A DNA stretch of 64,000 nucleotides, taken from positions 113,975 through 177,974 of the IMG/VR virus record IMGVR_UViG_3300031669_000002, one strand, 5' to 3'. Shown piece after piece: positions 47,566 to 56,245 of the stretch. How positions within the stretch are numbered: position 1 is the first letter of the stretch; every line of letters begins with the position of its first letter. The position numbers and the translations under genes were made by a program. Source of the DNA: a virus. Under the pieces are notes generated by a model. The model saw nothing but the letters and a program-made list of their open reading frames with translations, was not told where the DNA came from and ran no database searches.

Positions 47566-47648
47566 GCCCCGTTGGCTAAGACAAATTGGCACAGTCGCTT
47601 GTTTCAAACACAAGGCTTTTAAGGGTTCGAGTCCCTTATGGGGTACCA
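47566..47648 (+). tRNA. tRNA-Leu(CAA), enlarged D loop and short V region
   Basis: Loop TT-CAA-AC, A73, CCA. Confidence 0.75.
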
Positions 47649-47686: not shown

Positions 47687-48256
47687 ATGAACTATCTTTT
47701 ATACAAAATTACAAATACTCTAAACGGCTATATCTATATAGGTGTTCATGCGACCGATAATATCAATGATAGATATATGGGATCAGGTAAGAAACTACTC
47801 AATGCCATAAAGAAACACGGCATCGAGAATTTTCAAAAAGAGATATTAGAATATCTTGATTCAATTGAACAAATGTATTATAGAGAAAATGAAATTGTTA
47901 CTCCTGAATTTGTTGCGCGACACGATACATATAACTTAATGGAAGGTGGTTGGGGCGGCAAAATTACAGAAGAATCAAATCAGAAGAAAAAGAAAACTAT
48001 GGCCGAGAGAAAAGTAAGTCAGGGTAAAAAGAATTCGCAGTATGGATCTATGTGGATTACAAATGGGATAGAGAACAAAAAGATTAAGAAGACCGATTCA
48101 CTTCCGAGAGGATTTAGAAAAGGACGTATGGTTCCAGATGACTGGGGCGATAATATCAGACAAAAACTTAAAGGCAGGACATTAGAAGATATTTTGGGTC
48201 CTGAAAAAGCAGCGATTGGTAAGCTCAACAGAAGTAAACCAAGAGTAAAGATTTAA
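47687..48256 (+). mobile_element. GIY-YIG (Seg-like) homing endonuclease
   Basis: LLYKITN.LNGYIYIGVH, YMGSG, YNLMEGG. Confidence 0.85.
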
Positions 48257-48767
48257 CATCCGGCCTGTCGCGCATAGGTAGTTAGACTATGTGAGGTAAG
48301 CTCGGGACTGCCGTGAGAAGCGTGTAGGAGATAAGTTATAACTAAGTTGGTACACCCGCTTTCTGAGATCGAGAGACCCTAACCGACGAGGAAAGATGGA
48401 TAAGCTGATCGTAGGGCTCAGTGATGCATCAATGCCAACTTAGTTATAACTTATCGTTAAACTACCGTGATAAAGGCAGCAAGCCAAACAGTTCGTGGGA
48501 ACTTCTCACTTGTACGGACGGGTTGGTGCATCGATGATCCAGATTGAAACCTGGGGAGAACAGTAATTATTTGATGGGGCATGGTGTAGGTCGGCTTCAA
48601 AGTTTACCAGAACGTTGTAAACAGCCAGCAGAGATTTATCATCAAGCTAGACTCGCAAGAGTGACAAACGGTGCCTGAAGACGGGTTCAACTCCCGAATG
48701 CTCCACCAAATAATTACTGTAGTCGAATGATAGGATTAGAACAGAATCCCGGCTATGAGATGTTAAA
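48252..48767 (+). ncRNA. rnpB: RNase P RNA (bacterial type-A-like catalytic domain) with a nested tRNA-like insert
   Basis: P1 TTTAACATC/GATGTTAAA; P2 CCTGTC/GATAGG; P3 GCATAG/CTATGT; CR-I GAGGTAAGCTCGGGA; P4 8 bp with bulged U pairing 48747-48754; P5 CTGCC/GGCAG; P6 GTGAGAAG/CTTCTCAC; CAGCAAGCCAAACAG; CR-V ACAGAATCCCGGCTA. Confidence 0.85.
48576..48708 (+). ncRNA. 133-nt tmRNA-like (alanyl TLD) RNA inside the RNase P RNA
   Basis: GGGGCAT/ATGCTCC-A-CCA with G3.U70, P2a CTTCA/TGAAG, 3' GACGGGTTCAACTCCCG as in ssrA 3' ends. Confidence 0.8.
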
Positions 48768-48775
48768 AAGAATTT

Positions 48776-52979: not shown

Positions 52980-53079
52980 CACAGAATTCCACTAACCGTG
53001 GAAGACGGTTGACTAGGTTGTCAACCGTAACAATTTTTAACAATAGAGTTAAGAATTTTTTATAAAAGGAAGTAAAGTA

Positions 53080-53289
53080 ATGGCAACAGTAACAGGAACC
53101 GTAAAGTGGTTCAACGATTCAAAAGGTTTTGGATTTATTACCCCTGACACAGGAAGTGAAGATTTATTCGCACACTTCTCGGCAATCAACATGAGCGGCT
53201 TCAAGTCTCTCAAAGAAGGTCAGAAGGTAAGTTTTGAAGTGACACAAGGCCCAAAAGGCAAGCAAGCTTCAAATATCCAATCAGCCTAA
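53080..53289 (+). CDS. cspA: Cold-shock protein
   Basis: [15 protein letters not shown] (RNP1), DLFAHFSAI (RNP2), [10 protein letters not shown]. Confidence 0.95.
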
Positions 53290-53305
53290 GCAGTCCAAGC
53301 AAACT

Positions 53306-53336
53306 AAAAACGCCACATTACGTGGCGTTTTTTATT
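53306..53336. terminator. Bidirectional intrinsic terminator
   Basis: AAAAACGCCAC-ATTAC-GTGGCGTTTTT between convergent genes. Confidence 0.8.
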
Positions 53337-55835: not shown

Positions 55836-56245
55836 GTGCGGGTATCAGACGCACAGGAGTTGAAAGTAAGGCATTTGAGACGGCGGTTCAATTCCGCCCT
55901 GCTCCACCAAAAACGCTCTAGCCCTCCAAAGTGCTAAGACGACGGAACGATAAGTGATAACTTAGAAAATCCGCTAGAGTGTTATTGATGGGGCAGACCA
56001 GGACTCGATCAAGTGAGATAGGATAGATGACAGCACGATAAGAAGAATCGTAAAAATCAAACAAAACAAATGCAAACGCAGATGTTAATACCGTTAAAGC
56101 AACAATGAGCAAAGGTTTCCGTTTCCGTTTCGGCGGTACTGTAGCTCGTGAAGCATTCGCAGCCTAAAAACTGCACGGCGTCGGAGCTATCCGATGTTAC
56201 CAAAATAGTAGGTTTCACAAACTGCACCTAAAGCAGTTTGTACTA
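55836..56245 (+). ncRNA. ssrA: Circularly permuted two-piece tmRNA
   Basis: Acceptor piece ends GGCGG-TTCAATT-CCGCC-CTGCTCC-A-CCA (55909) and precedes the coding piece starting GGGGCAG (55990). G3.U70, stem-closed intervening segment, tag ANADVNTVKATMSKGFRFRFGGTVAREAFAA at 56072-56167. Outer ends approximate. Confidence 0.9.

Follow-up and report, generated by a model that had tools for sequence, protein, structure and literature searches.

A phage homolog of the RNase P RNA catalytic domain with a tRNA-like passenger nested in its gene

RNase P RNA is known from textbooks as a cellular housekeeping ribozyme. Can a phage encode such an RNA, and what is the tRNA-like RNA that lies inside its gene? 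These questions are raised by a 516-nt RNase P-like RNA gene of a large soil phage, in the final 64 kb of a 178-kb IMG/VR virus record (IMGVR_UViG_3300031669_000002), which is estimated to be ~51% complete. The 64,000 nucleotides analyzed are called the window below, and all positions refer to them. By covariation and model matches, the RNA is homologous to the catalytic part of type A RNase P RNA from bacteria, and the tRNA-like RNA is a passenger in an outer loop. We give a probability of roughly 0.6 to the reading that this is a phage RNase P RNA without a specificity domain (S-domain), whose passenger is likely released by cleavage in trans and 3' trimming.

Homology to the catalytic domain of RNase P RNA

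By eye, 48293-48307 and 48741-48756 look like a pair of P4 strands. Viral contigs were scanned with patterns and filtered for both strands, which yielded ~35 distinct homologous loci, most of them compact (~195-250 nt from P1 to P1) and each closed by a P1 of 6-15 bp. All homologs that were inspected with their flanks lay among tRNA genes. A seed alignment of 18 insert-free family members, analyzed by RNAalifold from the alignment alone, gave P1, P2, P5, a P7-like stem, P15 and P16, with compensatory changes at 35 of the 45 pairs. A covariance model (R1) was built from the same 18 members, leaving out the window and its near-twin L003. R1 matched the window at 48251-48768 over its full length (model positions 1-205) with 91.5 bits and an E value of 1e-25, taking 48532-48719 and a 116-nt stretch in the stub that replaces the S-domain (S-stub) as insertions.

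The pairing was evaluated in a model alignment of 41 matches (the window and 40 homologs), to which the P4 and P6 pseudoknots were added by hand; partners slid by 1-3 columns served as control. Standard pairs filled 94% of the cells versus 29-44% in the slid controls, and the covariation score was 0.63 versus at most 0.11. Double (compensatory) changes were found in 46 of 55 pairs, P4 and P6 included. The two variable positions of P4 (GG/CC, AG/CT, GC/GC, TC/GA and GA/TC) were complementary in all 34 of 34 homologs. P6 occurred in the family as ~17 distinct complementary sequence pairs, with double changes in 7 of 7 pairs and 77% of the cells paired. A cross-sequence control for P6 was weak because many homologs share one P6 sequence, and the count from the 41-match alignment was used instead.

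The family is connected to known RNase P RNAs through Stenotrophomonas phage DLP6. RF00010, the Rfam model of bacterial type A RNase P RNA (rnpB, the M1 RNA of E. coli), matched the insert-free DLP6 homolog end to end with 54.7 bits (E 2.6e-15). The alignment covered P1, P2, P3, GAGGAAAGUCC, GCAAggccAAAUAGG, CGGGUaggccGC, CuAGAugAAUG and ACAGAACCCGGCUUAc, and ~140 model positions of the specificity domain (P7-P14) were deleted in it. P1-P6, the bulged-U P4 and the P6 pseudoknot are thus shared with type A RNA, as are the GAGGAAG and ACAGAA-CCGGCU strands, J5/15 GCAA..AAA, the L15 GGU and J18/2 AGAUAAAUGA. Another family member, L054, was matched by RF00373 (E 3e-7). The DLP6 RNA was missed by an Rfam scan with an E-value threshold in a 281-nt slice and found in its 3-kb locus, so that negatives on very short slices are unreliable.

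Unlike type A RNase P RNA, the phage RNA has no specificity domain to read the tRNA elbow (P7-P14, ~140 model positions), scores below the gathering threshold, lies within tRNA arrays and carries passenger RNAs in its outer loops. In the window RNA a 4-bp stem with a variable hairpin takes the place of the specificity domain. The gathering threshold of RF00010 is 100 bits, compared with 54.7 bits for DLP6 and no match for the window. Because the S-domain is absent and the score is under the Rfam threshold, the RNA was filed as a variant and not as a standard member. Taken together, the alignments show the window RNA to be homologous to the catalytic part of bacterial type A RNase P RNA, through a chain that is transitive but strong.

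The first-pass annotation of this DNA had proposed an RNase P RNA homolog with an intact catalytic domain, which is borne out by the full-length R1 match, the covariation and the DLP6 link. The helices P1-P6, P15/16 and P18 and the regions CR-I and CR-V that it had drawn all lie where it had placed them. RF00010 recognized the insert-free DLP6 homolog but left the window RNA itself, with its insert in place, unmatched. The parts of the RNA are as follows.

48252-48767, + strand: complete gene of the RNase P-like RNA (516 nt), with P1 at its ends; a P1 search gives the same ends (R1 match 48251-48768)
48252-48260 with 48759-48767, + strand: P1, TTTAACATC with GATGTTAAA, delimiting the 516 nt
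48264-48270 with 48728-48734, + strand: P2, 98% paired, 6 of 7 pairs covarying
48271-48277 with 48287-48293, + strand: P3 hairpin, a hairpin of variable length found here in all members
48293-48312, + strand: CR-I-like GAGGTAAGCTCGGGA with the 5' strands of P4 and P5; RF00010 aligns GAGGAAAGUCC to the same DLP6 segment
48299-48307 with 48747-48754, + strand: P4 with U48302 bulged, 98.4% of cells paired
48308-48312 with 48475-48479, + strand: P5, 100% paired
48313-48320 with 48502-48509, + strand: P6 pseudoknot of 8 bp between J5/7 and the P16/17 loop, GUGAGAAG with CUUCUCAC, a type A feature
48324-48465, + strand: stub replacing the S-domain, with a GUAG/CUAC stem (48324-48327 with 48462-48465)
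48330-48455, + strand: S-stub passenger of 126 nt with a perfect 21-bp closing helix (48330-48350 with 48435-48455)
48475-48529, + strand: P5 3' strand, J5/15-like segment, P15, P16/17 hairpin with the P6 3' strand, and L15-like segment
48479-48491, + strand: J5/15-like segment (A248 region), GCAAGCCAAACAG
48491-48496 with 48514-48519, + strand: P16/17
48520-48523, + strand: GGGU of the L15-like CGGGUUGG, whose GGU pairs with the tRNA 3' CCA
48530-48559, + strand: P18-like hairpin, named by position only
48721-48758, + strand: J18/2-like AGUCGAA, P2 3' strand, J2/4, CR-V-like segment and P4 3' strand

RF00010 aligned GCAAggccAAAUAGG and CGGGUaggccGC to the DLP6 segments homologous with 48475-48529, and helices 8-10 of this region were 94-97% paired and covarying in the 41-sequence model alignment. 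The P18-like hairpin is common to L144, L010, L102 and L067 as C(T/A)ATGATC...GGGAG(G/A), and most members are without it. Further downstream, the J18/2-like segment reads AGTCGAATGA and the CR-V-like segment at 48741-48756 reads ACAGAATCCCGGCTAT; the stretch 48721-48758 carries a CR-V-like ACAGAAUCCCGGCUAU together with the P4 3' strand at 48747-48754. CuAGAugAAUG and ACAGAACCCGGCUUAc were aligned by RF00010 to the DLP6 segments homologous with this stretch, and these columns are invariant in the alignment. The active-site elements GCAAGCCAAACAG, CGGGUUGG, AGUCGAAUGA and AACAGAA are all present in the window RNA, in columns that are invariant in the family.

The insert-free member of DLP6 (L002, KU682439.2 105774-106018) lies unannotated between a hypothetical coding sequence (CDS) and a tRNA-Arg gene. 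In blastn searches with three family members against 50,697 GenBank phages, DLP6 was the sole match. In full-text literature searches no RNase P RNA encoded by a virus was found to be described, and for megaphages Rfam is reported to find only tRNAs and a transfer-messenger RNA (tmRNA; PMC8172020).

Catalytic RNAs of this reduced kind have been described. The catalytic domain (C-domain) of E. coli RNase P RNA is catalytic by itself (PMC5839562), and a type T RNase P RNA without S-domain is found in Thermoproteaceae (PMC3579882). Type T RNA (Pyrobaculum; RF02357) and the engineered C-domain RNA share with the phage RNA that they work, or would work, with little or no specificity domain. They differ from it in that type T is archaeal and has archaeal proteins, the C-domain constructs are artificial, and neither has nested RNAs. 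RF02357 and the other Rfam RNase P families gave no match on the window.

The nested tRNA-like RNA and its exchangeable slots

The insert at 48560-48720 comprises 161 nt. It takes the place of the loop in a short hairpin that lies between P18 and J18/2. In 31 of the 41 family matches the stretch from the L15/P15 closing strand to J18/2 is 0-2 nt long, so that the insert is an insertion relative to these members, as the first-pass annotation had claimed. A minority (DLP6, L010, L144, L087, L215 and L017) has a P18-like hairpin followed by a short second hairpin with a tetraloop.

An artifact was considered, and both insert junctions were found to be crossed, with 0-1 differences, by contigs from an RNA library and from two further DNA studies. 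L003 is an independent viral contig with the same insert arrangement. The assembly chimera that the first-pass annotation had allowed for is thereby refuted; together with chance resemblance, for which R1 leaves an E value of 1e-25 and no supporting point was found, it retains next to no probability. The read evidence consists of assembled contigs, from which RNA ends, strand and level are not readable. A ~90%-identical variant from the same soil joins 48564 to 48714 ('between: not known') and may, as a hint only, be an allele with an empty slot. An exact pattern for this putative allele had no match in the viral contigs.

The insert consists of three parts.

48560-48575, + strand: 5' strand of the stalk (P19-like hairpin) and, at the same time, leader of the tRNA-like RNA; pairs with 48705-48720 in a predicted continuous helix
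48576-48708, + strand: alanine-type tRNA-like passenger of 133 nt, GGGGCAT...ACCA, tmRNA-like and made up of the tRNA-like domain (TLD) only
48709-48720, + strand: 3' strand of the stalk and, at the same time, trailer, AAUAAUUACUGU

The closing stem of 12 bp is extended to 16 bp when leader positions -1 to -16 are paired with A73 to U88, with a single A/C mismatch at -2/74. In the predicted fold the stalk stacks on the 7-bp acceptor stem, and the insert region has a fold z of -3.7. A compensatory change from A-U to G-C distinguishes the stalk of the window and L003 from that of L063 and L241. The stalk thus covaries and could join two pieces of the ribozyme, which agrees with the role suggested earlier for the insert stem.

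The passenger has the acceptor stem GGGGCAU/AUGCUCC with G3:U70, the T arm CGGG-UUCAACU-CCCG and an ACCA end. The T loop and the 3' end are closely tmRNA-like, and the anticodon arm is absent. Between the TLD halves, the consensus fold of seven copies has two variable hairpins and an invariant central strand of 24 nt. The Rfam tmRNA model (RF00023) aligned to the ends of the passenger only (model positions 1-374; E 0.003), with 13.4 bits, which falls short of the gathering score of 47 bits. The complete 133-nt alanyl tRNA-like domain drawn in the first-pass annotation is borne out by the acceptor with its G3:U70, the T arm, the ACCA and the tmRNA-model match at the ends. The RNA also bears the features of an RNase P substrate, as that annotation had it, and RNase P is known to mature the 5' end of tmRNA (PMC3985003).

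In a functional sense, the earlier label 'mini-tmRNA' finds no support, since both a conserved tag reading frame and pseudoknots are absent. No tag reading frame was conserved among the module copies; neither pseudoknots PK1-PK4 nor helix 2 were found in the passenger, which has only 96 nt between the TLD halves, and ARAGORN called no tmRNA at 48576-48708. A 16-codon tag (GCA GAG ... TGA) was rejected as the frame is not closed in L063 and L240, where GCA GAG ATT... stays open to the 3' end. The frame AGA GAT TTA TCA TCA AGC TAG has a conserved stop but no conserved in-frame start, with an indel just upstream among the copies. Among candidate helices in the module, GUGUAGGUC with GAUUUAUCAU showed no covariation and is broken in two copies, and UCGGC/GCCUGA was rejected on account of uncompensated changes in L063 and L242.

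The closest published counterpart of the passenger, set beside it by description, appears to be the TLD-only tmRNA of mycobacteriophage DS6A. A molecule similar to the DS6A form strongly inhibits tmRNA, perhaps by titrating SmpB (PMC4131195, PMC11915505). DS6A-type and organellar CDS-less tmRNAs (PMC4131195, PMC11915505, PMC3590771) have in common with the passenger a tmRNA-type TLD, an alanine-type acceptor and the lack of a convincing tag frame. With 133 nt, the passenger is about twice as long as the ~65 bp plastid CDS-less forms that have been likened to the DS6A form (PMC11915505). It differs from DS6A-type forms in its two extra hairpins, in the invariant 24-nt strand and in being nested in another RNA gene.

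The 133-nt module was searched for by an internal motif and then by 5'-end patterns in viral and metagenome contigs. Seven distinct copies were found; the scans with 5'-end patterns gave ~130 chance matches and no copies beyond the seven. Their positions are given below.

Free-standing: L240 (identical to L350) and L088, a few nt past a tRNA 3' end, with leader and trailer unpaired
Nested at the S-domain stub of family RNase P RNAs: L063, L241 and L242
Nested at the P19 slot: the window and L003

The tRNA-like features (G3:U70, T arm and ACCA) are kept in 7 of 7 copies, including all five nested ones, and the two hairpins of the module covary across the seven copies. As far as sequence comparison can tell, the module is under selection at the RNA level. 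Next to the stalk, the nested copies have the flanks TTATTTGAT and AAATAA in common at both slots. The free module of L088 is 92-93% identical to the nested copies of L063 and L241, and the ribozyme cores of L088 and L063 are 79% identical. The L063 core is 94-96% identical to those of L007 and L094, both without the module; the same S-stub slot holds a small hairpin in L007 and an unrelated ~150-nt passenger in L094. Over the family matches, the contents of the S-stub slot range from 11 to 161 nt and those of the P19 slot from 0 to 189 nt, with unrelated passengers. Ribozymes with passengers are as well conserved as those without, with core scores of 148-173 bits. In P16 the window and L003 differ only by two changes that preserve pairing, swapping a U-A and a U-G pair. 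From these sequences we conclude that the module is a tmRNA-like, TLD-only gene in its own right, which has probably moved between free-standing and nested sites, and that the 133-nt RNA is a passenger gene in an exchangeable slot.

Other slot contents were also observed. The S-stub passenger of the window (48330-48455) is not tRNA-like, and its 21-bp helix is long enough to be cut by RNase III. In L003 the 126-nt passenger of the window is replaced at this stub by a different element of 49 nt, and read joints from 48330 to 48454/5 represent variants without that passenger. At L088:3977-4280 (- strand) the S-stub passenger is of another kind (GGGG...CUCCACCA), with a G3:U70 acceptor and no canonical T arm; the free-standing 133-nt module of L088 lies ~1.6 kb from the ribozyme on the same contig. 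The P19 slot of L102 and L067 contains an unrelated ~118-nt passenger without tRNA-like features. In L103:8-872 (- strand) the P16/17 region is interrupted by ~650 nt, in which the open reading frame (ORF) L103:83-712:- encodes a GIY-YIG endonuclease of 210 aa (PF01541, E 4.7e-9). The interruption may be either an intron or a free-standing homing endonuclease within the ribozyme gene.

Release of the passenger and competing readings

From the features described above we infer catalysis, processing and a function for the passenger. The locus would be one gene for a type A phage RNase P RNA that has lost its specificity domain and kept the core, that is P1-P6, P15-P17, J5/15, the L15 GGU, J18/2 and P4. 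Two outer hairpins, the S-domain stub and the P19-like hairpin before J18/2, would serve as passenger slots, both of them filled in the window phage. The whole unit would be transcribed together with the tRNA array. A cut 5' of G48576 would be made in trans, either by the RNase P of the host or by further phage ribozyme molecules that use host RnpA, and trimming of the 3' side to ACCA48708 would give a free alanine-accepting TLD RNA. The remaining ribozyme would consist of two (or three) pieces joined by P1, P2, P4 and the stalk, comparable to rRNAs that are functional after removal of intervening sequences. By analogy with DS6A, the freed TLD RNA may be a competitor for SmpB and for stalled ribosomes, by which trans-translation of the host would be disturbed or bypassed; competition for SmpB with the host tmRNA is plausible for the phage passenger too.

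Release of the passenger as such seems on balance probable. Cleavage is expected in trans because the scissile bond is predicted to lie at the far end of 16 rigid base pairs that lead out of the core. In cis, self-cleavage seems unlikely and sterically doubtful, since the continuous 16-bp helix of the model points away from the core, and we consider it distinctly improbable. Nested copies keep everything that a free alanine-accepting RNA needs and nothing that only a structural domain would need. CCA is encoded by 38 of the 44 tRNA genes of the window, which fits an enzyme leaning on the L15-CCA contact. We put forward only tentatively that the gene is a natural enzyme-substrate fusion, in which a precursor ribozyme contains passengers excised by RNase P, the maturation of a tmRNA mimic is tied one-to-one to a split active ribozyme, and the gene acts as a launch pad for small RNAs. 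The stoichiometric coupling or autoregulation suggested in the first-pass annotation would likewise be only a possibility.

Several points weigh against a released passenger or against an RNase P RNA. In 0.3-, 0.7- and 18-kb contexts of the window copy, no Rfam RNase P family reached the gathering threshold or even E <= 10, and RF00010 run over the whole record gave no match to the window copy. RnpA (PF00825) and SmpB (PF01668) were not found in the 178-kb record, which says little for a ~51% complete genome. The sole contig of the RNA library over the insert is uncut, and the depth of this library is flat across genes and RNAs alike, which may reflect carry-over of DNA. In the predicted fold, the leader pairs with A73, C75 and A76 when the module is nested, and the stalk helix, continuous but for one mismatch, has by this model a poor geometry for an RNase P substrate. 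Since inhibition of tmRNA by a TLD is possible 'whether or not chargeable' (PMC4131195), a function would not strictly need release. With seven copies, the inferences on mobility rest on few sequences.

Some of these points would suit a tRNA-like domain that is never released and serves as a built-in domain of the ribozyme, for instance as a handle for SmpB, EF-Tu or AlaRS or as a substitute for the S-domain that would recruit the ribozyme to machinery handling tRNA. Its CCA end is largely paired in the stalk, the module sits exactly at the former S-domain site in three of the five nested copies, the single RNA-library contig runs across the insert uncut, and a TLD inhibits tmRNA chargeable or not, perhaps by titrating SmpB (PMC4131195). 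However, the module also stands free in tRNA arrays, with ordinary unpaired leaders and trailers; it occupies two structurally unrelated slots, and the same slots in close relatives hold unrelated passengers or nothing. ACCA and G3:U70, for which a structural domain has no need, are kept in all nested copies, and permanent retention therefore seems unlikely. The mobility of the module might also be that of a selfish DNA cassette, spread by neighboring homing endonucleases and tolerated in outer loops, so that the nesting would have no role at the RNA level. A GIY-YIG-like ORF indeed abuts the gene and another interrupts the L103 homolog, presence and absence are polymorphic among near-identical cores, with a possible empty-site allele in the same soil, and the nested copies share TTATTTGAT and AAATAA at both slots. 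Yet the hairpins of the module covary and its tRNA-like features are kept, as expected from selection on RNA; the module is also a normal gene in tRNA arrays, and the stalk covaries such that the ribozyme halves stay joined. A cassette explains the arrival of the module and is compatible with an RNA that is processed and used, and as a full account we hold it for rather improbable.

The host RNA itself could be inactive, as a decayed gene or as a decoy for pre-tRNA or for the RnpA of the host. The missing specificity domain, the lack of a direct Rfam match on the window, the two large insertions and the failure to find a phage RnpA in the ~51% complete record are all compatible with this. Against it stand the purifying selection with compensatory changes on every core helix in 40 homologs, the invariance of the universally conserved sequences of P4, J5/15, L15 and J18/2, and the constant location of the inspected members in tRNA arrays. 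Moreover, a homing endonuclease targets the gene in L103, and such targets are usually genes whose function has to be maintained; an inactive RNA is very improbable. These comparisons favor an S-domain-less phage RNase P RNA with a passenger that is likely cut out in trans.

Genomic setting and relation to known systems

The gene is located within the tRNA island of the window, which comprises 44 tRNA genes, all on the + strand (ARAGORN counted 45 genes including one tmRNA). tRNA genes lie on both sides of the ribozyme gene, and a tRNA-Lys starts 9 nt past the 3' end of P1. One neighboring feature overlaps the gene.

47687-48256, + strand: upstream ORF of 189 aa, a weakly GIY-YIG/SegE-like homing endonuclease, with its stop codon within the P1 5' strand

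The matches of this ORF to Pfam (PF19835, E 1e-4; PF01541, E 1e-3) are both under the curated cut-offs, and the same 189-aa-type ORF is found upstream of the ribozyme gene in L003. A scan for promoters and terminators gave no excess over shuffled sequence.

A permuted tmRNA was detected at window 55847-56167 by RF04321 (88 bits) and by the betaproteobacterial tmRNA model (55.7 bits). The phage thus has a full two-piece tmRNA besides the tag-less tRNA-like RNA. Two weaker matches were recorded in the window: a tRNA-like match at 47566-47645 (RF00005, 33 bits) that ARAGORN did not call, and a match to the cspA thermoregulator at 53042-53336 that is below threshold (61.5 bits; gathering score 78).

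RNA genes that contain other excisable stretches are known. Burgin et al., in work of 1990, reportedly described 23S rRNA intervening sequences that are removed without re-ligation. Another case is a permuted tmRNA whose intervening sequence contains an intact gene for tRNA-Ala (PMC11915505). In both, as proposed for the phage gene, a stable-RNA gene hosts an excisable stretch and the host RNA works in base-paired pieces. The host there is a tmRNA or an rRNA, whereas here it is the would-be cutting enzyme. Ribozyme and substrate have been placed on one chain in engineered self-cleaving conjugates of pre-tRNA and RNase P RNA, in which a 3-nt spacer joins the 3' end of the tRNA to the L15 equivalent (PMC3378863, PMC2475606). 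Unlike the phage gene, these conjugates are artificial, and their tether lets the tRNA reach the active site in cis; the phage substrate is held at P19 or at the S-stub by a rigid stalk of 16 bp, an arrangement that would favor cleavage in trans.

For the phage family, the window adds a second slot for the same passenger, free-standing copies and evidence of general exchangeable slots. A gene for an enzyme here contains the gene for one of its likely substrates. The finding opens the questions of whether the RNase P RNA works in pieces, whether ribozyme and cargo are coupled, and what a tag-less tmRNA mimic does in infection. For the ribozyme itself, the insert-free member of DLP6, a cultured Stenotrophomonas phage, offers an immediate experimental handle. 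A widespread and undescribed phage family with the catalytic half only would be a natural experiment on the minimal ribozyme, and a phage RNase P RNA would, if true, be a new way to take over tRNA maturation.

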